From positions 18,157 through 82,156 of the forward strand of contig CAIQIZ010000021.1 of the NCBI GenBank assembly GCA_903872035.1: a stretch of DNA of 64,000 nt. Reading direction: 5' to 3'. Positions 8,315 through 29,529 of the stretch are shown here, piece by piece. This DNA comes from an uncultured bacterium (GTDB lineage Bacteria; Patescibacteriota; Minisyncoccia; Phycocordibacterales; PALSA-1337). The notes under the pieces were generated by a model, which saw only the letters and a program-made list of their open reading frames with translations, had not been told where the DNA came from and did no database searches. The translations under genes and the position numbers were made by a program. Each line of letters begins with the position of its first letter. Positions within the stretch are counted from its first letter, which is position 1.

Positions 8315-10183
8315 TTAGAAGTTAGCCGTAGCGTATAGAGTGTTTCCAATCGTAGGAGCCGATAGAGAACCTGCGCCTGTAACCGCGCTACCATTCCAAC
8401 CAGTTTCATACTTCAAAGCAGTGATGCTATAAGTACCCTTTACAGTTCCAGGAAGACCGCTTGCGGACTCTGTAACGGTGAAGGTCTTTGTATTACCCGC
8501 ATCGACATAGAAGTGAGCCGATCCACCACTTGTAGTATCACCTGTAGAATCGTTATCGCGGAAGCTGACATTTGTCCATGTTCCAGTTCCCGTTGTAGCA
8601 GCTGTGACCGCATTGGCATAATTCGCATCTACGAAGATCGGATTATTTCCAGCAGTCAAGCTGTAGACGAAGTAGAATGTCTGAGACGATGAAACGTTCG
8701 CTATTGCTCCAGGAACAGAATCATGAGTAACAGCCAAACCACTCTGTGACACACCTGAATCTGCGAACGTCAAGACGTTGCTATTCGGGGTGATCGTGTT
8801 AACAGCGAGCGTGTTGTAAGAATTGTCGATAACGCTCGGGTTGTTTCCAGAAGCACCTGCTGTTCCAACAGCCACAATGCTTGTCGAGGCCATCAAACCA
8901 TTCAATGAGCCGCCAACTCTTCCTGCTGTATCGGCATTGACATTTGCGTAGACTGACACCGGAGTCCAGACATCGGCAGATAGCGGTATCACCAAGCTTG
9001 TGAAGTGCGCTACGGTTATGGCTGCATTCGAATTATCTATCGAGCTTGCAGAATATGTCTTACCTGCCGCCGAAATAGATATCGTGCCGAAAAGGTTAGC
9101 CACATTGCTGTTAGTGCTGATAGTGACATCCAGGCTCTGCATTGTTGAATTCACATTGGCAGACTTGACATCGTATATAGCCAAGAGAACATTATTGGTA
9201 TTAACCGATGTCGAGATCTGCACGTTTCCTGTTGTCGGTTGAGTGCTGTCAGACTTTACATTGATCTGACCAATGTTCGAACCTTGATAGGTGAACGAAC
9301 GCGCGGCAGATACAGTCTCTGTATCTGTCACACCGGTTCCGTCAACTGCACGGACTGATGCTCCGAGGATACTGATCGGGCACGAACCTGTCGGACAACG
9401 ATCTGAGCTCGGAAGGAATGACATATTGACTGTGATGTACTTACTCTGTGCGGCCTTAACAACGAAGCTAGCAGGAACGGTGATGCGATAATCGCTACCG
9501 GCTGTAAGCTCAACAAAGCTTGAAGCAGTCAAGTTGTTAACTGATCCAACGACAGCGCCTGTTTCATCCTTGAGGGTGATTGTGCCTGCGTAGAGCCAGA
9601 TATAGTTGTTAAAATCAAACGTGAAGCCGGAGACTGCCATATCGGAAGCTCCTGCCTGAAGTTTGTATGATGCAACATCATAAGCACTACCCTTGTAGGC
9701 TGAAACACCTGAAGGGGAAGACCACAGTGAGGCCGAGAGGATACCCGGTACACCAACGGTGGTGATACCAACCGTAGTGCCAGTGACCGGAGTCGTGCCT
9801 GTGAGCGGGGTACAATTGTATCCGACTGGACACTGAACGACTGGGGTTCCACCAGTGACTACTGTGCTACCTGCATTCAACTTTCCGCGTGTCAAAGGAC
9901 CGACGAAGCCGGTCGCAGGAAGACCAACGGATGTCTGATAAGCAACAACGGCAGCCTTGGTCTTAGCACCAAAGAATCCTTGGGCCACGCCAGCTGGCAT
10001 GGTGAGGAAGTTATTGGCGACGAGCCAAGTCTGAAGAGCTACAACGTCCTGACCAGTCGAACCAACGGTCAAGTTGTTCGAGAAGGTGTAACCTTGAGCG
10101 CTTGCGATCATGGTGAAGGCCAAAACGGCGATACCAGATGCAATAAGAACTTTTTTCATATCTATTTTTATAATTAAACGCAT
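8315..10183 (-). CDS. Secreted T/S/G-rich surface protein with an N-terminal peptidoglycan-binding domain
   Basis: Signal peptide MKKVLIASGIAVLAFTMIASAQG (alternative start at 10159). PG-binding motif TGQDVVALQTWLVANNF...GFFGAKTKAAVVAYQ...GPLTRGKL. Long low-complexity beta-rich remainder. Confidence 0.6.
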   Translation of the reverse strand: MRLIIKIDMKKVLIASGIAVLAFTMIASAQGYTFSNNLTVGSTGQDVVALQTWLVANNFLTMPAGVAQGFFGAKTKAAVVAYQTSVGLPATGFVGPLTRGKLNAGSTVVTGGTPVVQCPVGYNCTPLTGTTPVTGTTVGITTVGVPGILSASLWSSPSGVSAYKGSAYDVASYKLQAGASDMAVSGFTFDFNNYIWLYAGTITLKDETGAVVGSVNNLTASSFVELTAGSDYRITVPASFVVKAAQSKYITVNMSFLPSSDRCPTGSCPISILGASVRAVDGTGVTDTETVSAARSFTYQGSNIGQINVKSDSTQPTTGNVQISTSVNTNNVLLAIYDVKSANVNSTMQSLDVTISTNSNVANLFGTISISAAGKTYSASSIDNSNAAITVAHFTSLVIPLSADVWTPVSVYANVNADTAGRVGGSLNGLMASTSIVAVGTAGASGNNPSVIDNSYNTLAVNTITPNSNVLTFADSGVSQSGLAVTHDSVPGAIANVSSSQTFYFVYSLTAGNNPIFVDANYANAVTAATTGTGTWTNVSFRDNDSTGDTTSGGSAHFYVDAGNTKTFTVTESASGLPGTVKGTYSITALKYETGWNGSAVTGAGSLSAPTIGNTLYATANF

Positions 10184-10559
10184 CTCTCCTATTATTAATA
10201 ATCGAAGGAGATTTTAATGCGGTTTGTAAACTAAACTGCTTACTAATTAATAATTGCCACTTCTTCCCGATCCGCGCTATCGACACGCGTCACGAAAAGG
10301 ATTTGTGGGCGAAACATGATGACTGAATCTGAAGATTGAAAATTGAAAAATTAAAAATAATTCAACTTCCAAAAGACAAATCCAATCGGACTTGCAAACA
10401 TACTTTTGTTGTAGTTTTCAAGGTCCATTCCCCATGCATGCCGCTTCGGCATATGCCTTGGGACGAGGGTACAATTTTCCGCACTACTTTGTTTAATAGG
10501 CGGGAATTACACACTCGTTACAAGCCATTATAGCCCACAACACTACGAATCTGCAAAAA

Positions 10560-10730
10560 GAGCCATGTGGATAAGTTTCCAAGCAATTTGGGTAAATATA
10601 GGTTAAATACGGCCGAAAGTCAAGGAAAGGTGCCAAAAACCACATAAGAGCGCCCTTTTGGCGCCGCAGGATTTTCCCTTCGTTGCGCTTCGCGCAAGTC
10701 GGGAAAACTGCTCCGCCAAGCGGGCGCTAT
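10560..10730. other. Structured intergenic element downstream of gene 10737..11543: branched hairpin set closed by AGCGCCC/GGGCGCT. Possible complex terminator or small RNA
   Basis: Nested inverted repeats: GCGCC-CTTTT-GGCGC; TTGCGC-TTCG-GCGCAA; outer AGCGCCC...GGGCGCT. On the minus strand a TTTTTGG run follows the outer stem. A second hairpin ATGCCG-CTT-CGGCAT lies at about 10440-10460. Confidence 0.3.
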
Positions 10731-10736
10731 AATCCG

Positions 10737-11543
10737 TCATTTTAGCGAATACCTGCTCCAACGGCGTTCACCTTCCTTTTTGACTATCCCCTTTTCTACT
10801 AATTCCAGCAATTCACGCTGGATCGTCTTCTGGCTGCAATCCTTGATGACTTTAGAGAAGTCCTTTATGGTCAAATTCGACTGCGTCTTTAGGACATTCA
10901 AAATCGTCTCCCGACGATTAGACTTTTTCTCTTGCAAACCACCTTGTCCTTTAGTGTATCGCTCTTCTCGGCCATTCTCCTGACTCCTAGCTCCTTGCTC
11001 TTGGCTCCTAGTGCTCCTACTGTCTGACTTGAACCCGCTGACAAATAAATCGGGTGTTTTGAAAAAAGACTCAGAAAGGACATAACCAGCCTTTTCGGCG
11101 CTCATAGCCAGACGATCTCGGAGCATAGATACGATGTTATCAATTTCACGGACCAACAGGCGATGATTCATCTCGGATACCAGATTGGAGATCCTGGCCA
11201 CATTCAATAGAGAGAGGGTTTCCAAGGCTGCAGTAAACAGTGACTGTATGACGATATTTTTATCGCCAGGCATAGAGCTTGATGCAGTGAAAGATGAGGA
11301 CAAAAGGTCAATACCACGATCACGCAATTCCCACTTGATAGGCTCATCGTCCTTTAGAAGTCCCGAGACCAAGTAAAGAGCAGCTGTAATCTTTTCTGTC
11401 TTTTTGAATATGTACAATAGGTATTCTTCCGCAGAGAAAAACCCCAATGTTTTCCAGTTCAATGGGTTATTGAAGGATTCTTGATTATTTGATTCTTTGT
11501 TGTCCATTATAGCTATAGGTCTGTCCTTTTGACGCCGAACCAC
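10737..11543 (-). CDS. Hypothetical protein with a C-terminal winged-helix HTH (putative transcriptional regulator). Carries an in-frame low-complexity repeat insert
   Basis: C-terminus TILNVLKTQSNLTIKDFSKVIKDCSQKTIQRELLELVEKGIVKKEG resembles a DeoR/wHTH domain. Internal tandem RSQEQGARSQENG is encoded by a CTCCTAGCTCC-type repeat at about 10965-11020. Confidence 0.5.
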   Translation of the reverse strand: MVRRQKDRPIAIMDNKESNNQESFNNPLNWKTLGFFSAEEYLLYIFKKTEKITAALYLVSGLLKDDEPIKWELRDRGIDLLSSSFTASSSMPGDKNIVIQSLFTAALETLSLLNVARISNLVSEMNHRLLVREIDNIVSMLRDRLAMSAEKAGYVLSESFFKTPDLFVSGFKSDSRSTRSQEQGARSQENGREERYTKGQGGLQEKKSNRRETILNVLKTQSNLTIKDFSKVIKDCSQKTIQRELLELVEKGIVKKEGERRWSRYSLK

Positions 11544-11622
11544 TTGTCCTATACAAAACGCGTGTTTTCCTTGTCCCTTATGTGTCCATTATAGTCGGAG
11601 TATGCTCAATTGCAAGCGGCTA

Positions 11623-11682
11623 CAGAAATCCTTCCGTTTGCCGTTGGCCCACAACGCTCAAACAGAAGGATTTCTTTCGCCA
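11623..11682. repeat. Palindromic repeat element, copy A (intergenic, upstream of ftsK): arms GAAATCCTTCCGTTTG / CAAACAGAAGGATTTC around core CCGTTGGCCCACAACGCT
   Basis: Shares the core GCCG(C/T)TGGCCCACA(A/G)CGCTC with copies at 48591, 50546, 51078 and 21198. Its inverted-repeat arms co-vary with copy B. Confidence 0.7.
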
Positions 11683-11724
11683 CGCTCATTCACTGGCAAC
11701 TGATAACACGATTTCTATTCTCAT

Positions 11725-14088
11725 ATGCTATTATTAGAGATTATGGCAAAGAAGAAAGAAAAGGACTTGGGAAAAAAGATCAGATTTTGGGATGAGATGC
11801 GCGATGAGACGGTACAGGTGATACTCTCCATATTCTCCTTCGTAATCACCATATTGACCTTGTTGGCGGCTTTTTATCATGGCGACAACAGTAACTATGC
11901 CGGTCCGATCGGCAACTTTTTCTATACTTATATGACAAAGCTTTTTGGCATCGGCTATTTCCTTGTTCCGATGGCTTTCGCCATGCTCGGTGTCTCATTC
12001 CTTCAAGGATTAAAGAAAAAGATAGAGATATCCAAGGTGCTCGGCGTCTTTCTCTTCTTCATCACCGGATTAGGCCTATTGAATATCGCCTACTCTGACG
12101 CTGGTGGCATAGTCGGTCGAACGATCGACTACCCGCTCGTGAAACTGCTCGATACCATTGCGAGCGCGATCCTCTTGGCCGCCATCCTCATTGTCGGAGT
12201 GATCATGACATTCAACTTGTATTTCACCTTCGCCGATCTACGAGAATGGAAAGAGGAAAGGAAGCTAAGACTGGAAGCAAAAGGTAAAAAGGAAGATGTC
12301 GGCAAAACAACCTCTGGTATAGACAAGAGCGAAGAGGAGTTCATAGCTCAAGCGGTAGCAAAGGCCAAGAGCGGTGGAGAATTGACGGCCCGAGAAGCCG
12401 AGGCGGCAGCTGCCAAAGCCCGTCTCGACGCAATGGAAAACAAGAAAGCAAAGACTGGAAAGCCTTTGGACACTGACGATCTTTCCGACTTCAAGACATT
12501 GGGGCTTTCGGCTGTCGCCTTGCCGCATCTCTTACCTTTCACTCCCCCACCTCTGACCTTGCTCGAAAAAGATCGTGGCAAGCCGGAGACCGGAGATATC
12601 AAAGCTAACGCTAATATAATCAAACGAACGCTGCAGAACTTCGGGATAACGGTAGAAATGGATGAGATTTCCATAGGCCCATCGGTCACTCGCTATGCCC
12701 TGAAACCGGCTGAAGGAGTGAAGCTCTCTCGGATAGTCACTTTGAACAATGATCTTTCCTTGGCTTTGGCAGCCCACCCTATCCGCATCGAAGCACCGAT
12801 CCCGGGAAAATCTCTGGTCGGCATAGAAGTACCGAACACTGCCAAGACTACCGTCGGATTGGCAACCCTTCTTTCCTCACCTGATTTTCAGGAATCAGAG
12901 AAGCCTCTATACATGTCGCTTGGTAAAGACATCACCGGAATGGCCCACTTCGCCAATCTAAGCAAAGCTCCACACATGCTCATCGCTGGAACTACTGGTT
13001 CTGGAAAATCGGTTACCATTCACGCACTTATAACTTCCCTCTTGTACCGCAACTCTCCCGAGAATATGAAGTTCATCATGATCGACCCAAAACGCGTGGA
13101 GCTGACTTTGTACAACAAGATTCCCCACCTTCTCACTCCAGTCATCACTGATCCAAAGAAGGCTATCCTGGCTCTGAAATGGGCAGCCAAAGAGATGAGC
13201 CGCCGATACGACATTTTGGAAAAGAACGCGGCTCGCGACATCGATTCATACCACAAGACGATCTTGGCGCCGGCATTGGCAGCCTGGAGCAAGGAGGAAG
13301 GAGCAAACAGGAAGAAGGAAGGGGATCCTGGCTCCTCACTCCTAGCTCCTAGCTCCTTGCCCGAGACAATGCCGTTCATTGTGATCGTCATCGATGAGTT
13401 GGCTGATATCATGCAGACCTACCCACGCGAACTGGAAGCAGCTATAGTTCGGTTGGCGCAGATGAGCCGGGCCGTCGGCATCCATCTTGTCATCTCCACC
13501 CAAAGACCGAGTGTCAACGTCATCACCGGTCTCATCAAGGCGAATATCCCTTCTCGCATCGCCCTACAAGTCTCTTCGCAGATCGATTCACGGACTATCC
13601 TCGATCAAATGGGCGCCGAAAAGTTGCTTGGCGCTGGCGATATGCTCTATCTGGGCGGCGAGATGTCCAAGCCGGTCCGCTTGCAATCAGCTTTCATCTC
13701 CGAATCTGAAGTCAAACGCGTCGTCAAATTCCTGACCGACCAATATCGCGACGAGATCATGAATGAGATCAACTTGACCCCGACAGAAGCCGGAGCTTCA
13801 GCTGCTTTCGATGCCATGACCGGAGACGACTCTCTGGAAGAGGAAGATGAGCTCTACGAGGCCGCTCGAGAAGAAGTCACCTCTGCCGGCAAAGCTTCAA
13901 CATCGTATATTCAAAGAAAATTGGGAGTCGGCTATTCGCGGGCCGCCAAGCTCATGGATCTCCTGGAAGAACATGGTGTCATCGGGCCTGCTAATGGATC
14001 TAAGCCTAGAGAGATCATCGGAGTCGGAGCAGGACTTGAGCAGGAAGTTCCAAAAATTGAAACTACTGAAACCACAGAAAGTTCATAA
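11725..14088 (+). CDS. ftsK: DNA translocase FtsK/SpoIIIE
   Basis: N-terminal TM helices; Walker A MLIAGTTGSGKSV; Walker B VIVIDELAD; C-terminal gamma wHTH domain. An in-frame low-complexity insert GDPGSSLLAPSSLP (nt about 13321-13362) is encoded by a CTCCTAGCTCC repeat. Alternative start at 11743. Confidence 0.85.
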   Translation: MLLLEIMAKKKEKDLGKKIRFWDEMRDETVQVILSIFSFVITILTLLAAFYHGDNSNYAGPIGNFFYTYMTKLFGIGYFLVPMAFAMLGVSFLQGLKKKIEISKVLGVFLFFITGLGLLNIAYSDAGGIVGRTIDYPLVKLLDTIASAILLAAILIVGVIMTFNLYFTFADLREWKEERKLRLEAKGKKEDVGKTTSGIDKSEEEFIAQAVAKAKSGGELTAREAEAAAAKARLDAMENKKAKTGKPLDTDDLSDFKTLGLSAVALPHLLPFTPPPLTLLEKDRGKPETGDIKANANIIKRTLQNFGITVEMDEISIGPSVTRYALKPAEGVKLSRIVTLNNDLSLALAAHPIRIEAPIPGKSLVGIEVPNTAKTTVGLATLLSSPDFQESEKPLYMSLGKDITGMAHFANLSKAPHMLIAGTTGSGKSVTIHALITSLLYRNSPENMKFIMIDPKRVELTLYNKIPHLLTPVITDPKKAILALKWAAKEMSRRYDILEKNAARDIDSYHKTILAPALAAWSKEEGANRKKEGDPGSSLLAPSSLPETMPFIVIVIDELADIMQTYPRELEAAIVRLAQMSRAVGIHLVISTQRPSVNVITGLIKANIPSRIALQVSSQIDSRTILDQMGAEKLLGAGDMLYLGGEMSKPVRLQSAFISESEVKRVVKFLTDQYRDEIMNEINLTPTEAGASAAFDAMTGDDSLEEEDELYEAAREEVTSAGKASTSYIQRKLGVGYSRAAKLMDLLEEHGVIGPANGSKPREIIGVGAGLEQEVPKIETTETTESS

Positions 14089-24877: not shown

Positions 24878-24904
24878 GTTGCCACTTTATCACAAGGCTG
24901 TGAT

Positions 24905-25252
24905 TCAGGCTATTTGAAGTTTCGACTCGATGCGGCGCAAACGCGGAGCATGATCTTTGAAAACGACTTTCTCGAGAGAATCGAACTTCACTTCCAGGCG
25001 TTCGATATCATCTTTAGTGGCCATATTTTCTTTGATCCCCGAGATTTCTTTTTTTATTTCTTTGAAACCTTTGTCGACTTTGATGACTAAACTATCCATT
25101 CCCTTGAAACCGTTGGCAACTGTAACGGCAAGACCAGAAACGGTAACGGCAAGGTCGTCAGTTTCCTTGAATCCTTTAGCGATCATAATAGCCAGATCAT
25201 CGATAGTGACTTTAGAATCATTTGAATTACAATTTGTTTGTTCTTGAATCAT
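24905..25252 (-). CDS. Hypothetical coiled-coil protein with periodic KGFKE repeats, immediately downstream of the DGR RT
   Basis: Repeated GFKE(T/I/M)D motifs; no family recognised. Confidence 0.35.
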   Translation of the reverse strand: MIQEQTNCNSNDSKVTIDDLAIMIAKGFKETDDLAVTVSGLAVTVANGFKGMDSLVIKVDKGFKEIKKEISGIKENMATKDDIERLEVKFDSLEKVVFKDHAPRLRRIESKLQIA

Positions 25253-25377
25253 AGATTAATTGGTTAGAAAGCTATTAATAGGCGAAAACGGTATAGGCAT
25301 ACCGACAGGCCAGTACATTTTATTCCTCAATAAAAAGATTGCAAGCTTACACATTTGCGTTCTCGTTTTGTAATAAT

Positions 25378-26361
25378 CTATTTTCGTGCCTTCATACCCA
25401 ATGATGAAACAATCTTATGTGTATTTCCATGCTTTAGCATTCCCAGATATGAAGCAACCGTCGCCGGCTTTGGATTGTTTAGGAGGGCCTTAATCATTCG
25501 ACGTTTTGTAGTTGTGCGCAATATTCTATGACTGGGAAAATTGATCCACCCGAGAAAATCGATACCGGATGAGTATGTCGCGATAGAGACTTTATCAGGA
25601 TGCAGATCCAGCAAGAGATTCTGTTTCAGAAACGCGCGGATATGTTTCAAAACTTCCTCGATAACGGCTCGGTCGGTATTCATGACAATGAAGTCATCCG
25701 CGAACCGTATGTAATATTTCTCCTTAACCTCGTGCTTCATATACTGGTCAAATTCATTCATGAAAATATTGACCAGCAGTTGAGAAGTCAGATTCCCAAG
25801 CGGCAATCCCTTGCCGGGGATCACCGAATCGAAGCTCTCGACGATTCTTCTCAATAACCAGAGCGTGTCATCGCCGACGTTATGTCGCTTTACGACCTCA
25901 AACAATCGCGCATGATCAATGGAGGCGAAGAATTTTCTGACATCGCATTTTAGGACCCAGCAGGTTTGACTATCATTTCGGCTAGCTCTCCGATATAGCT
26001 CCAGAAACCTTCTTATAGCTTTATGGGTTCCTTTTTCATTCCGGCATGAATAAGAATCGTGGATGAACAGCCTGTTAAAATATGGATACAATACCCGGTA
26101 AACGGCGTGATGAAGAAGTCTATCTCGAACAGTCGCTTTGTGAATCTTTCTAGGTTTTGGGTCGGAAATGTTGAATTCCTCATAGCCGCCGTGTTCGTAC
26201 GTCCTATCTTTCAGATCCGCGTGCAAATCAAATATATTTTCTGACAAATGCATGGAAAATTCCATAACGTCCTTCCGACCACTTTTGCCACATAAAAATT
26301 CCTGCCATGCGACAAAAAGGTTATCCGGCGATATAATTGTTTGGTATAGATCTATATACAC
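25378..26361 (-). CDS. DGR reverse transcriptase
   Basis: RT motifs: PKPRKIHKATVRDRLLHHAV (motifs 1/2). Motif 4 is GLPLGNLTSQLLVNIFMNEFD, with the DGR-specific [ILV]GxxxSQ in place of QGxxxSP. Motif 5 is YIRFADDFIV. Thumb motif GIDFLGW. Confidence 0.85.
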   Translation of the reverse strand: MYIDLYQTIISPDNLFVAWQEFLCGKSGRKDVMEFSMHLSENIFDLHADLKDRTYEHGGYEEFNISDPKPRKIHKATVRDRLLHHAVYRVLYPYFNRLFIHDSYSCRNEKGTHKAIRRFLELYRRASRNDSQTCWVLKCDVRKFFASIDHARLFEVVKRHNVGDDTLWLLRRIVESFDSVIPGKGLPLGNLTSQLLVNIFMNEFDQYMKHEVKEKYYIRFADDFIVMNTDRAVIEEVLKHIRAFLKQNLLLDLHPDKVSIATYSSGIDFLGWINFPSHRILRTTTKRRMIKALLNNPKPATVASYLGMLKHGNTHKIVSSLGMKARK

Positions 26362-26407
26362 ATTCTCTCATGATGCCCCCCCCCCGCAATCAAAAATACC
26401 GACAGTC

Positions 26408-26764
26408 GTGCATAAGCAAAAAGAAGCATATTCATTATGGGTCAGGCTTCATCACAATTTTCCCCGGACAGAACGGCTCGGTCTTGGCCGGAAAATAGAC
26501 TCGGCCTTTCTCGATCTCTTGGAATGGACATTTGTCGGCGCGTACCTGCCTCCTGAACAAAAGATCCCTGTTTTGAACAAGGCCATGACAAGGCTGGATA
26601 TCGTAAAGTTCTTTACGCAAATATCGTGGGAAAACAAGCTTATACAAAACGAGCAATACATAGCACTATCTCTCATGTTAGAAGAAATCGGTCGACAGCT
26701 CGGCGGCTGGAAGAAAGGCCTGCAAACAAAACTCCCCAACCTTGAGCCGGGGAGAAAGACTTGA
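26408..26764 (+). CDS. avd: Accessory variability determinant (Avd) four-helix-bundle protein, encoded antisense to TR/RT. GTG start proposed; the track ORF starts at ATG 26252 and would overlap the RT start
   Basis: EAYSLWVRLHHNFPRTERLGLGRKIDSAFLDLL...IALSLMLEEIGRQLGGWKKGL matches the Avd pattern (...FP..E...LG.QI.....LL.....EVGRMLGGW). The stop at 26764 abuts the TR. Confidence 0.6.
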   Translation: MHKQKEAYSLWVRLHHNFPRTERLGLGRKIDSAFLDLLEWTFVGAYLPPEQKIPVLNKAMTRLDIVKFFTQISWENKLIQNEQYIALSLMLEEIGRQLGGWKKGLQTKLPNLEPGRKT

Positions 26765-26768
26765 GTTT

Positions 26769-26876
26769 CGGGAGAACACCTGGTTGCCATCATTCCACCT
26801 GTTCGGATTCTCAACCGGATTCGCGTTCACGTTCCAGCCGTCGTCGTACCAGTTCACGTTGACCGCGCGGAGCACA
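26769..26876 (-). repeat. DGR template repeat (TR)
   Basis: 108 bp, 81% identical to VR. All 20 differences are plus-strand T in TR (A on the minus/coding strand). TR translates to Asn-rich AVNVNWYDDGWNVNANPVENPNRWNDGNQVFSRNS. Confidence 0.85.
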
Positions 26877-27188
26877 CCGGAGTTCATCGTACACGAGACC
26901 ATCCGCATCACCGCCCACCAAACCATGATGAGCTGAATCTTGTTCGGGACATCGAAGTCCTCCAGTCCCATGCACCAATTCTATTCTTTTTTGAAGAGAC
27001 CTTCCCCACTCTCGCGCGAGGCCTGACCGTCAACAAGGAGTTATACCCAACGCGACTCTCGAAGAAAATATCCTAAAACCATGACGCGGAAGCCATGTCC
27101 GCCGCGTGCCGCATGATTTCAGCATTAGTATATCACCCAATAGGTAATTCCGTTGAACCAGGTCATATACAAAAATTGACCCCCGCCT

Positions 27189-27206
27189 GCCTCCGCCAGC
27201 TGGCGG
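27189..27206. repeat. Perfect 18-bp GC-rich palindrome CTCCGCCAGCTGGCGGAG, about 87 bp downstream of VR. Candidate DGR homing hairpin. A second copy lies at 28273-28290
   Basis: Self-complementary 18-mer. Identical 17/18 copy inside the glyS 3' end. Confidence 0.5.
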
Positions 27207-27243
27207 AGCAAACAGAGGGTCAAAGTGTCCGAGGAACAAAGGA

Positions 27244-27993
27244 TCAGGCTGTCGCCGGAACCGGAGTTTCCGAGGGTTTGAGAGCGGAATTGCGGGAGAA
27301 CACCTGGACGCCACCATCCCACCCGCACGGATACCCAACCGGACCCGCGAGCACGCCCCAGCCGCCGCCGTACCAGCACACGTCGACCGCGCGGAGCACA
27401 AACCATTGATCTTTGATCTCAAATAGGTACTGCGAATCCTTGACCTCTTCAAAGATCTCCCTTCCTTCAAGGCCAACGTAGCTGAAACGCTTGTCATCGA
27501 GTTTCTTCACCGGTTGGGGGATGTAGCGGATATTCGCATACCCGTTAGTCAGAAGCAGACCAGCGGCGCTTTTGGGACCGTCCTGTTGATTCTCCATGTC
27601 GCGGAACATTTCACCAAGAGAAGAGACGGCTTTGGGCACACCGCCCAGCTCGAGGATAATGTCCTTGTCATACATGTACCTGGGCAAGGTGAAGACGTTG
27701 GGTGCCTTCGTCGGCGGGAGATCTTCAACCGTGTTCCAGAACCAATTCATGAAGTTGTTCCGGACTTCGCAGATCTTCACCTTAGCATTGCGGCTGGTGT
27801 CGACCTTGAAGTGATCCCTGACAACAAACTTGCCTTGATTCCAAGATTGAGAAGCGAGCCAATCGGTCAGAGGTCCTTGAAGGCGACCGGACTTAGCCGC
27901 ATCAATAATGTTTTGAGGGACGAGATCTGTCCGATTCCAGTTGACACAGGTTATGAGAGTCGCACCGGCGGTTGCTATCGTTTGATTATTCAT
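27244..27993 (-). CDS. DGR target (variable) protein with C-terminal C-type-lectin/FGE-like fold carrying the VR
   Basis: The C-terminus LRAVDVCWYGGGWGVLAGPVGYPCGWDGGVQVFSRNS is encoded by the VR. The TR encodes the same frame with Asn (AAC) at the variable positions. Confidence 0.8.
   Translation of the reverse strand: MNNQTIATAGATLITCVNWNRTDLVPQNIIDAAKSGRLQGPLTDWLASQSWNQGKFVVRDHFKVDTSRNAKVKICEVRNNFMNWFWNTVEDLPPTKAPNVFTLPRYMYDKDIILELGGVPKAVSSLGEMFRDMENQQDGPKSAAGLLLTNGYANIRYIPQPVKKLDDKRFSYVGLEGREIFEEVKDSQYLFEIKDQWFVLRAVDVCWYGGGWGVLAGPVGYPCGWDGGVQVFSRNSALKPSETPVPATA
27293..27400 (-). repeat. DGR variable repeat (VR) at the 3' end of the target gene
   Basis: Aligns base-for-base with TR 26769..26876 (offset 524). 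The mismatches are confined to TR-adenine positions. Confidence 0.85.
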
Positions 27994-28191
27994 TTTTGGT
28001 TTGCTAGGTATCGCAATGCTCCTTCAAATCCTTGCACACCTTGATTCATATCAAGCCCGCACAAGAAAAATCAGAAAGAGAAGTGGTTCGCCACAGCATT
28101 CCAGGTCCTATCTCAAGACCCAAAATGCCATGGCGAAATGGATATTTCTCCACAATTTGCTCTGTAAAGGAGCCCTATTTGCCTCCTTTTA

Positions 28192-29529
28192 TTATACCAC
28201 CTTTTGCTTCAAAAAGTCAAGTAGTTCCGCCTCACCAACCCTCTCCTGCTTACCTGTATCTCTGTCGCGCACCGTTACGCCTCCGCCAGCTGGCGGATTT
28301 TTTTCAATAGTATCAAAATCGATGGTCACACAAAATGGCGTACCTATCTCGTCCTGGCGGCGATAGCGCTTGCCGATGTTCCCGTTGTCGTCGAAGGTCG
28401 TGGCTGGGATTTCTTTTTTTATGGCCTTGAATATTTGCTGAGCTCTTTCAACTAGAACTGGCTTGTTGCGAAGCAATGGAAAGACAGCGACTTTATACGG
28501 CGCCACATTCGGAGACAATTTCAAATAAGTACGCTTCTCTCCGCCAAGGTCGTCTTCTTTGTAAGCGTCGGTGAGAACTGCCAGCAGCATACGATCAAGC
28601 CCAAATGAAGGCTCGATGCAGTGTGGGATGAATCTTTCTTTGGATTCTTCGTCGTAATATGACAGATCGACTTTGCTTGATTCGGAATGTTGTTTCAAAT
28701 CAAAGTCGGTACGATAAGCCAGACCAGACAATTCTTTTCGGCCAAATGGAAAATCGAATTCGAAATCGATGGTTCGTTTGGAATAATGAGCGCGATCGCC
28801 GTCCGCTACTTCCAATTCATGGACTTTGGATCCATCCAAACCGACATCGGCCATAAAGTCTTTTGATTCTTGCTGGAAATGTTCGAAAGACTTCTCCCAC
28901 TCCTTTGGGTTCACGAAATACTCTATCTCCATCTGCTCGAACTCTCGTGCACGGAAAAGGAAATCCCTGGGAGCGATCTCATTCCTGAAAGCCTTCCCTA
29001 TCTGAGCCAAACCGAAAGGTAATCGTGGATGCTGCGTGTCGAGGATATTTTTGAAATTAACGAACATGCCCTGAGCGGTCTCCGGACGCAGATAAGAAAT
29101 AGACGATTCGTCTTGAACAGCTCCAACGTGAGTCTGGAACATCATATTGAATTGCTTCTGCTCCCCGACCTTGCCGCCGCAATCCGGACACTTCCCCGCC
29201 TCGGCTAGTTGATCGGCACGAAAGCGATGTTTGCACTTGGAGCATTCAACCAGAGGGTCACTGAAACCGGAAACGTGTCCGGAAGCTTTCCAAACATTTT
29301 GGTTCATAAGGATAGCCGCGTCTACGCCGAACATATCGTGACGGCCATCGACAAAACGCCTCCACCAGAGGTTCTTGATATTATTCTTCAAAGCCACGCC
29401 GAGTGGGCCGTAGTCCCATGTTCCAGCCAATCCACCATATATTTCAGAGCCTTGAAAAATAAACCCGCGGCGTTTGCAGAGCGAGATGATCGCCTCCATA
29501 ACATCGGTTTTGTCGTTTGATTCCGCCAT
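28192..29529 (-). CDS. glyS: Glycyl-tRNA synthetase (alpha2 dimeric type)
   Basis: Class II motifs; C-terminal anticodon-binding domain ...GKRYRRQDEIGTPFCVTIDFDT...VTVRDRDT. Contains an in-frame palindrome-encoded NPPAGGG insert. Confidence 0.85.
   Translation of the reverse strand: MAESNDKTDVMEAIISLCKRRGFIFQGSEIYGGLAGTWDYGPLGVALKNNIKNLWWRRFVDGRHDMFGVDAAILMNQNVWKASGHVSGFSDPLVECSKCKHRFRADQLAEAGKCPDCGGKVGEQKQFNMMFQTHVGAVQDESSISYLRPETAQGMFVNFKNILDTQHPRLPFGLAQIGKAFRNEIAPRDFLFRAREFEQMEIEYFVNPKEWEKSFEHFQQESKDFMADVGLDGSKVHELEVADGDRAHYSKRTIDFEFDFPFGRKELSGLAYRTDFDLKQHSESSKVDLSYYDEESKERFIPHCIEPSFGLDRMLLAVLTDAYKEDDLGGEKRTYLKLSPNVAPYKVAVFPLLRNKPVLVERAQQIFKAIKKEIPATTFDDNGNIGKRYRRQDEIGTPFCVTIDFDTIEKNPPAGGGVTVRDRDTGKQERVGEAELLDFLKQKVV
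28273..28290. repeat. Second copy of the 18-bp palindrome CTCCGCCAGCTGGCGGA(T), in-frame inside glyS (encodes PPAGGG)
   Basis: Matches 17/18 with 27189-27206. The two copies flank the DGR target gene. Confidence 0.5.

Follow-up and report, generated by a model that had tools for sequence, protein, structure and literature searches.

Two identical copies of a short GC-rich palindrome flank the target gene of a diversity-generating retroelement (DGR) in a 64,000-nucleotide stretch of DNA from an uncultured bacterium (contig CAIQIZ010000021.1, positions 18,157 to 82,156; hereafter the window). One copy lies beyond the variable repeat (VR) of the target gene and the other inside glyS, the gene for glycyl-tRNA synthetase (GlyRS). 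We consider it likely that they are two nearby copies of a so far undescribed dispersed 16-bp palindrome, TCCGCCAGCTGGCGGA, of many genomes of the Patescibacteria (candidate phyla radiation, CPR), and not a DGR signal or a cassette boundary. Alignment with homologues shows both copies to be lineage-specific gains of ~12 nt from a palindrome family that is widespread in low-GC CPR sequence, and the palindrome is probably a selfish mini-element that nests in hairpins. The source genome is a Patescibacterium of the Paceibacteria/Parcubacteria type, with best matches to its GlyRS at 79-84% identity. Comparison loci and contigs are labelled with L-numbers (L008, L014, L201, L379 and so on).

A 19-mer, GCCTCCGCCAGCTGGCGGA, is repeated exactly at 27189-27207 and 28279-28297 of the window, where shuffled sequences predict no exact 19-nt identity between copies (0 expected). 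Searches for its 14-mer core with at most one mismatch and for the 18-mer with at most three recovered the same two sites only in the 64 kb (0.00-0.02 expected from shuffles in either case), and the two copies are among only four GC-rich perfect hairpins in the window with a stem of at least 7 bp. They are spaced 1,090 bp apart with exactly one gene between them. Copy 1 is 35 nt past the stop codon of the target gene and 78 nt past the end of the homology between VR and template repeat (TR) at 27287, and copy 2 is 287 nt upstream of the target-gene start, within glyS codons 413-419 (NPPAGGG) in the HGTP_anticodon domain. An earlier note on this DNA had correctly reported identical palindromes on both sides of the target gene, but its positions for them, 27189-27206 and 28273-28290, are off by 2 and 8 nt, and it put copy 1 about 87 nt from the VR, on the right side of it but too far away.

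We give almost no credence to the idea that the copies are two independent GC-rich, terminator-like hairpins that agree by coincidence. Copy 1 does belong to a terminator, and copy 2 on the + strand has T7 downstream and scores as terminator-like. Copy 2 is intragenic, however, with no + strand gene to terminate, and its T-run consists of conserved E-K-N codons; the copies agree at 19 of 19 positions, and the identical sequence recurs in more than 100 other contexts. A third GCCAGCTGGC-centred near-palindrome, CCACGCCAGCTGGCATGG, occurs at 9985-10002 in a 622-aa open reading frame (ORF; 8315-10183, − strand), where it is read TMPAGVA; we rejected it as a member of the family, as an ordinary MPAGV stretch that lacks signs of insertion and is probably unrelated. 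A search of the whole 64-kb window against Rfam returned no family matches.

Copy 1 forms the apex of a hairpin that begins 20 nt past the stop codon of the target gene and comprises ~21 pairs, including three G·U pairs (−35.6 kcal/mol, z = −6.6; Table 1). The G·U pairing is possible in the − strand transcript only, which makes the hairpin strand-specific. On that strand copy 1 has the GC-rich stem-loop, the adjoining U-tract and the position just past a stop codon that mark intrinsic terminators; copy 2 lacks this combination on the strand of its gene and is terminator-like on the antisense strand only. Comparison of target-gene orthologues from three loci (L379, 58% identity; L380, 55%; L381, 51%) revealed the same left arm (TTTGACCCT..GT..GCT), right arm and T-run at a conserved position, with plain tetraloops (TCAC or TTCG) and no palindrome. 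A MAFFT alignment places a gap of 11-13 nt in all three orthologous terminators precisely at the position of the palindrome. On these sequence features, the copy 1 site is the conserved, predicted intrinsic (Rho-independent) terminator of the DGR target gene. Since the orthologues have the same arms and T-run around a tetraloop, the 16-mer appears to have replaced the 4-nt loop of a conserved terminator; and since an ordinary tetraloop is found in all of these hairpins, including that of L380, which has no DGR within 3.5 kb of its target homologue, the terminator appears to be the conserved feature and the palindrome a later addition to its apex.

The earlier note had likened copy 1 to the hairpin needed for DGR retrohoming. 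As published, this hairpin has a GC stem of 7-10 bp and a 4-nt GRNA loop and lies 4-34 bp from the VR; loop size and sequence are critical in Bordetella phage BPP-1, and hairpins downstream of the VR are near-universal in DGRs, with stem sequences that are free to vary (Guo et al. 2011, PMC3240598). Copy 1 would by analogy be a target-site hairpin or cruciform that promotes cDNA integration at the VR, with copy 2 an incidental or off-target duplicate, a reading that we consider unlikely. It gains from the GC-rich inverted repeat with a 4-nt centre downstream of the VR (CTCCGCC/GGCGGAG, 7 bp, or 9 counting the A-T and G-C pairs of the centre), from the GC hairpin that each related DGR examined has 49-80 nt past its VR, and from the identical arms of the L014 hairpin. 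The loop of copy 1 is AGCT on both strands and not GRNA, however, and its distance of 78 nt (63 nt from the base of the extended hairpin) exceeds the published range, which makes it a weak candidate for a DGR hairpin.

The related DGRs bear on the same question. The element conserved in L379, L381, L014 and L008 is a hairpin followed by a U-tract, with loops that vary: TCAC and TTCG in the orthologues, and, in the more distant L014 and L008, where hairpin and T-run lie 49-57 nt past the VR, CCCAA and GAAA, the latter in L008 only. The same terminator stands behind the DGR-less target homologue of L380. A conserved hairpin, which the earlier note had proposed to look for at a fixed distance from the VR, is present in related loci, but its loop varies and the closest DGR relatives lack the palindrome. 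The palindrome itself occurs at ~100 low-GC sites without a VR nearby among the matches listed, and no VR adjoins any of the other low-GC copies examined, the window holding the only copy that does. Three further loci were considered for a DGR link and set aside: L120 has a DGR-like reverse transcriptase (RT) but no TR/VR in the contig, L249 has no such link, and the RT of L142 is that of a group II intron (Rfam RF01999/RF00029). We also rejected the palindrome as a target of this intron, which starts at least 150 nt away.

The second suggestion of the earlier note was that the palindromes could mark a cassette boundary. As identical sequences 1,090 bp apart that enclose exactly one gene, they might serve for recombination or delimit a mobile cassette with the target gene in it; we find this very improbable. 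In the closest relatives (L201-L206, 81-84% GlyRS identity) a gene for an M16 peptidase lies 15-19 bp past glyS (315 bp in L203), and the whole 3.3-kb DGR block of the window is missing between the two genes. The breakpoints of the block are the glyS stop codon and the M16 peptidase start, away from the palindromes. The glyS tail past copy 2 is collinear and homologous with that of the relatives up to the stop codon, so that copy 2 is not a junction, copy 1 sits in the middle of the block, and other pairs of copies in other genomes bracket no comparable genes. The presence/absence of target gene and VR that the earlier note wished to see does exist, for the entire block and with junctions elsewhere, which refutes the palindromes as its edges. 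We also rejected recombination between the two copies, as the predicted deletion and inversion junction peptides match neither the variant protein P0058 nor contigs L377 and L378. In L014 (Kaiserbacteria, 66%; 10001-13953), a DGR also lies directly downstream of glyS, with a target whose N-terminus is non-homologous. As a DGR follows glyS in the window and in L014 but in none of the closest relatives, repeated loss or repeated insertion must have occurred there.

Copy 2 is read in frame and occupies a variable loop of the anticodon-binding domain, directly ahead of the conserved VTVRDRD strand, where it converts EK-(G/N/D)xG to EK-NPPAGGG. The PPAGG insert was found in none of 80 genome-derived CPR GlyRS genes and in none of the 119 closest database GlyRS proteins (74-84% identity), whose loop reads EK-(G/N/D)-x-G. 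At this loop the DNA of relatives is GAA AAA GGT GCC GGC GTT (L201) or GAG AAG AAC GCC GGC GTG (L203), and that of the window is GAA AAA AAT CCG CCA GCT GGC GGA GGC GTA, a net gain of 12 nt at the pre-existing mini-palindrome ACGCC/GGCGT. The "extra PPAGGG" of the earlier note was essentially right, the net gain being four codons relative to all close homologues. A solved GlyRS structure, 8u2q, has a 5-residue gap at the loop of copy 2.

Beyond the window, at least 120 metagenome contigs contain the 19-mer, most of them of low GC and CPR-like. Among the matches listed there are 128 distinct sites of the 16-mer, 87 of them with a local GC below 0.50. Forty-four of these low-GC sites lie in ORFs of at least 150 aa, where the palindrome is read as PPAGG (37), SASWR (7) or RQLA (0), and at a local GC of 0.55 or above the corresponding counts are 8, 3 and 17. 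The high-GC occurrences are a chance helix motif, RQLAE/D. The bare 16-mer in viral contigs shows the same contrast in reading frame between low and high GC. Low-GC sites make up 11/46 of the occurrences of the real 16-mer, compared with 2/19 and 1/57 for two composition-matched control palindromes.

Pfam-confirmed hosts of the family include SecA, BipA, RsmH, TGT, peptidase S41, PPDK and GlyRS, the last with the palindrome at three different sites in three lineages, and its non-coding settings are terminator-like hairpins and the tRNA-Asn fragments described below. Copies are shared across divergent CPR lineages with a GC content of 29-50%. Carrier loci contain extra, unascertained copies at ~1 per 30-35 kb, and 1.5 Mb of other CPR loci contains none. 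Pairs 0.2-9 kb apart were found in 6/52 low-GC loci, so the pair in the window, spaced 1.1 kb, is typical of the family. The earlier note had offered "another dispersed palindrome family" as one explanation of copy 2, which this wide distribution in CPR-like contigs supports; it had added that a palindrome frequent genome-wide without enrichment near DGRs would make the flanking coincidental, and we find no consistent DGR association in these contigs. A literature search returned nothing on the DNA word, on the peptide with this meaning, or on repetitive extragenic palindromic (REP) sequences and their RAYT transposases in CPR.

The SecA orthologues compared were collected by protein and not by DNA. 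The SecA site normally reads x-x-G-E-T/S, and five carriers read (N/S)PPAGGG with four additional codons; their nearest relatives (83-84% identity) have KKG or ADG, and none of the carriers is a near neighbour of another. The palindrome is, on these alignments, gained repeatedly at the same SecA loop. In one further SecA, GPPAGGG occupies another Gly loop. Where carriers were ascertained by their peptide, it is again this palindrome that encodes it (16/16 and 15/16). At four independent sites x1-x2-Gly becomes x1(NNT)-PPAGG-Gly, the 16-mer replacing 4 nt, and this arithmetic equals that of the terminator loop. In orthologous copies the core is intact in flanks that are 45-71% identical. The flanks lengthen the palindrome by at least 3 bp in 6/15 unbiased low-GC copies, compared with 1/31 high-GC copies, and they pair better than swapped flanks at low GC only. 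Point-mutated centres (AACT, AGTT, GGCT and others) make up ~8% of the copies in carriers, indicating that copies decay.

We infer from these patterns a hairpin-directed spread, the retention of PPAGG readings alone, and a local-spread origin of the flanking in the window. Copy 1 would have replaced the tetraloop of a pre-existing Rho-independent terminator and would now merely lengthen its stem, and copy 2 would have taken the place of 4 nt in a surface loop of GlyRS that contains Gly, and be translated as PPAGG. Both would be recent ~12-nt gains in this lineage, and their bracketing of the DGR target gene would reflect local spread or clustering of the repeat, not DGR function or cassette structure. 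More generally, new copies of the 16-mer would arise at the apex of hairpins or mini-palindromes (GCC..GGC) that are already present, or in Gly-codon loops, with small deletions accompanying insertion. The hairpin tip could break and be mended by templated repair or by gene conversion with another copy as donor, or a hairpin-specific enzyme could act on single-stranded DNA in trans. In genes, selection would retain only in-frame events that read as the flexible peptide PPAGG.

In a stronger version, which we put forward tentatively, at somewhat less than even chances, TCCGCCAGCTGGCGGA would be a mini-element of Patescibacteria, so far undescribed, that spreads actively and has target specificity for hairpin apexes and for the same Gly-loop positions of essential genes (SecA, and GlyRS at three sites). 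If true, it would imply either dedicated machinery that recognises hairpins for insertion or conversion, or a mobile element for which the palindrome is a portable site to land in or home to; contigs described below, broken precisely at the copy 2 centre, hint at the landing-site option.

A different explanation would make the 16-mer not selfish but a selected binding site for a conserved dimeric DNA-binding protein (a chromosome-organising site of the parS/Noc/SlmA kind, an operator or a DNA-uptake signal), with the two copies looping or insulating the target gene. A perfect 16-bp dyad that is identical across very divergent genomes in saturated flanks would suit such a site, as would the conservation of synonymous core positions in the peptide-ascertained SecA copies and the low to moderate density in carriers, which is like that of architectural sites; such sites are also known inside genes. 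We nevertheless think it quite improbable. The gains are insertions of ~12 nt into conserved proteins, not point mutations, and decayed centre variants exist. The hairpin is often lengthened by flanks whose sequence is specific to the site, and copies sit on the apexes of pre-existing hairpins, which points to structure or to an origin in single strands. The palindrome is also wholly absent from the 1.5 Mb of other CPR sequence, and its density is far under that of known uptake sequences.

Several points weigh against a selfish, hairpin-nesting element. The nearest relatives without the insert reach only 81-84% identity at the protein level, too little to define exactly which unit was inserted. 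No filled/empty polymorphism between near-identical strains was found, the phage relatives yielding three near-identical filled alleles, and no mobilising enzyme or donor-recipient event was identified. Genes resembling Y1/RAYT transposases are ~20-fold commoner in carrier loci, but they are flanked by different hairpins. The metagenome copies were ascertained by exact DNA match, which inflates their apparent conservation, and the copy count for the source genome, two, covers the 64-kb window. The palindrome may also have a function at the DNA or RNA level, such as protein binding or RNA processing. Finally, the glyS-adjacent DGR of L014 has a post-VR hairpin with arms TCCGCC/GGCGGA and a different loop, which leaves room for a DGR link; as a second such hairpin in L014 lies 6 kb from its DGR, it looks like a trait of the family rather than of the DGR.

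We examined Y1_Tnp-like genes as the source of a cognate RAYT/Y1 transposase and rejected them: those in L110, L122, L114, L092 and L023 are flanked by other hairpins, and the window has no such gene. These CPR Y1/RAYT-like (IS200-like) genes have hairpins of their own (CCCTAGG..CCTAGGG; TTCCCGT..ACGGGAA), and L110 contains three copies of CCCAAGGAGTCACCTTGGG inside a Y1-like ORF. Their flanking repeats point to putative systems of the REP/RAYT type in Patescibacteria.

Contig ends provide a separate observation. In three assemblies (ERZ1426627, ERZ18626419 and ERZ27313095), contigs (L377, 1-1587; L378, 1-1563) match the window at 100% identity over 1,550 nt, as far as the precise midpoint of copy 2 (28289/28290; ...TCCGCCAGC), continue with 37 nt of unrelated sequence, AGAGTGTGGGCCATAATATTATCGGGGTCTATTTCCG, and end. 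The break yields a truncated GlyRS call, …NPPAECGP followed by a stop, and another sample, ERZ1426688, has the intact locus. The 37-nt tail was not found in the window, the comparison loci or viral contigs, and no other half-palindrome shares its continuation. Among the matches listed for L081-L200, 16/96 low-GC copies lie within 150 nt of a locus end, compared with 0/29 high-GC copies, suggesting that assemblies tend to break near the palindrome. The palindrome may be a landing point for an element, its hairpin tip may break, or the contig ends may be an artefact of library or assembly.

The DGR of the window is, by its sequence, a genuine one: 21 of the 22 TR/VR mismatches are at TR adenines. 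The predicted promoter (Table 1) probably drives the target gene; it is composed of the last glyS codons and the stop codon, is followed by a ~190-nt leader ahead of the target gene, and has its −35 element ~60 nt downstream of copy 2. Target, TR and RT share one strand; the bAvd-like ORF lies on the other and overlaps the start of the RT gene, an arrangement that L379 shares. A terminator-like hairpin with a T-run (CTCCCCGGCTCAAGGTTGGGGAG TTTTG) lies at 26732-26754 (−), 9 nt past the TR and within the avd coding region.

Table 1. Features of the window, followed by sites in comparison loci
Feature	Position	Strand	Remarks
Copy 1	27191-27208		Perfect 18-bp palindrome CTCCGCCAGCTGGCGGAG; 16-mer core 27192-27207
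Copy 2	28281-28298		CTCCGCCAGCTGGCGGAt; perfect 16-mer at 28282-28297
Extended RNA hairpin and U-tract	27171-27223	−	Pairs 27223 to 27176, then UUUUU 27175-27171
glyS, class II GlyRS, 445 aa	28192-29529	−	tRNA-synt_2b and HGTP_anticodon (346-442)
Predicted sigma-70-like promoter	28220 to 28191	−	TTGACT-18-TATAAT, extended −10 TG, 11/12; over glyS stop codon
DGR target gene, 249 aa	27244-27993	−	VR at 3′ end
VR	27287-27400	−	TR/VR repeat match
TR	26763-26876	−	TR/VR repeat match
bAvd-like ORF	26252-26764	+	Domain match; true start probably internal
DGR reverse transcriptase	25378-26361	−	RVT_1, E = 2.4e-27; homologues in L008 and L014
115-aa ORF	24905-25252	−	No Pfam match; between RT and M16 gene; part of DGR block
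Whole DGR block (target, TR, avd, RT, 115-aa ORF)	24878-28191	−	Absent in closest relatives
tRNA-Asn fragment sites	L099 ~9560-9700; L100 ~10700-10830; L134 ~520-720; L131 1-250		
Y1/RAYT-like genes with own hairpin repeats	L023 14062-14770; L122 4324-6048; L110 203-976		
Companion palindrome families	L150 ~700-760; L154 1446 and 3725; L179 12333; L192 1549		

Other carrier contigs contain the palindrome in settings of their own. Four loci have a 5′ fragment of tRNA-Asn (acceptor and D-arm) with the 16-mer in place of the D-loop, located a short way upstream of a small GIY-YIG nuclease ORF or, in L131, directly upstream of an intact tRNA-Asn; at these fragments ARAGORN calls the neighbouring intact tRNAs only. 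The fragment and its ORF could be a mobile GIY-YIG cassette at tRNA genes. We rejected GIY-YIG ORFs as a general partner of the palindrome, as they are confined to this one context. L177 has three copies (1619, 1685 and 7031), two of them 66 nt apart (…GGFGGAHPPAGGKGFGG… and …NFGGGHPPAGGGGFGS…) in a Gly/Phe-rich segment that looks like a DnaJ G/F region. Carrier contigs also have other GC-rich palindrome families, with CCTGCCTGCCGGCAGGCAGG directly beside a copy, and a composite unit, CAGCCCGAGGCTGA-TCCGCC-TTG-GGCGGA, is repeated across three loci.

For the DGR, a tempting but unsupported annotation falls away: the hairpin after the VR becomes a conserved terminator whose apex is foreign, and the palindromes do not delimit the target gene as a cassette. 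For CPR genomes, a 16-bp palindrome through which loops of essential proteins gain PPAGG would be an apparently unreported class of genome parasite or structural repeat. If confirmed, it would account for part of the lineage-specific insertions that characterise CPR proteins, serve as a marker of strain or lineage history, flag a cause of contig breaks, and point to an unknown hairpin-directed DNA transaction in organisms that are not yet genetically tractable.

Judged by analogy, the closest known counterparts of the family appear to be the Rickettsia palindromic elements (RPEs) and the REP/REPIN elements. Ogata and colleagues are said to have described RPEs in 2000 as in-frame palindromic repeats in protein-coding genes. 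RPEs are ~100-150 bp long, genus-specific and found in a reduced genome. The family resembles them as palindromic DNA that lies in frame in unrelated, often essential genes whose orthologues lack the insert, that adds a tolerated extra peptide, and that has non-coding copies too; we find the same palindrome in frame in GlyRS, SecA and other hosts, with orthologues lacking it. It differs in its 16-bp core and net gain of 12 nt, outside the length and consensus of RPEs, and in its PPAGG reading, its place on hairpin apexes, its recurrence at one site in different lineages and its range over divergent CPR lineages.

REP/REPIN elements (a subject of PMC2817692, PMC3116915 and PMC3733652) are short GC-rich hairpin repeats mobilised by RAYT (Y1 HUH) transposases; REPs are extragenic, imperfect palindromes of 20-40 nt with a GTAG/CGTC head, usually number hundreds per genome and flank the cognate RAYT. 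The palindrome family shares with them GC-rich hairpin repeats that are dispersed, often at gene ends and overlapping terminators, and RAYT-like Y1 genes are present in CPR loci. Its core, however, is a perfect 16-mer and not an imperfect palindrome of 20-40 nt, at least 37 low-GC copies are intragenic (in ORFs of at least 150 aa and in confirmed housekeeping genes), and the Y1 genes are flanked by hairpins other than this one. A GTAG/CGTC tag within 10 nt accompanies 14/98 low-GC copies, compared with 4/94 control positions, and has no fixed position. Copy density, counted in loci, is 2 per 64 kb in the window and ~1 per 35 kb in carrier loci.

Other systems are more distant. The DGR hairpin shares with copy 1 the GC-rich inverted repeat, the 4-nt centre and the place past a VR. 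Loop and distance differ, and the palindrome is absent from sister DGRs and abundant away from any DGR. Mobile GC clusters and double-hairpin elements of fungal mitochondria are GC-rich palindromic mini-elements in AT-rich genomes and sometimes lie in frame in genes, but they come from another domain of life, reach greater lengths (30-60 bp or more) and are not tied to one reading frame. HIP1 (GCGATCGC) of cyanobacteria and the DNA uptake sequences of Neisseria and Pasteurellaceae are lineage-specific words of 8-12 bp at ~1 per kb. Like them, the palindrome is an over-represented exact word that occurs in genes with a frame bias and in terminators; those words originate through point mutation and drive, not insertion, and at ~1 per 30-35 kb in carriers from divergent lineages the palindrome has neither the density nor the lineage-specificity of an uptake sequence.

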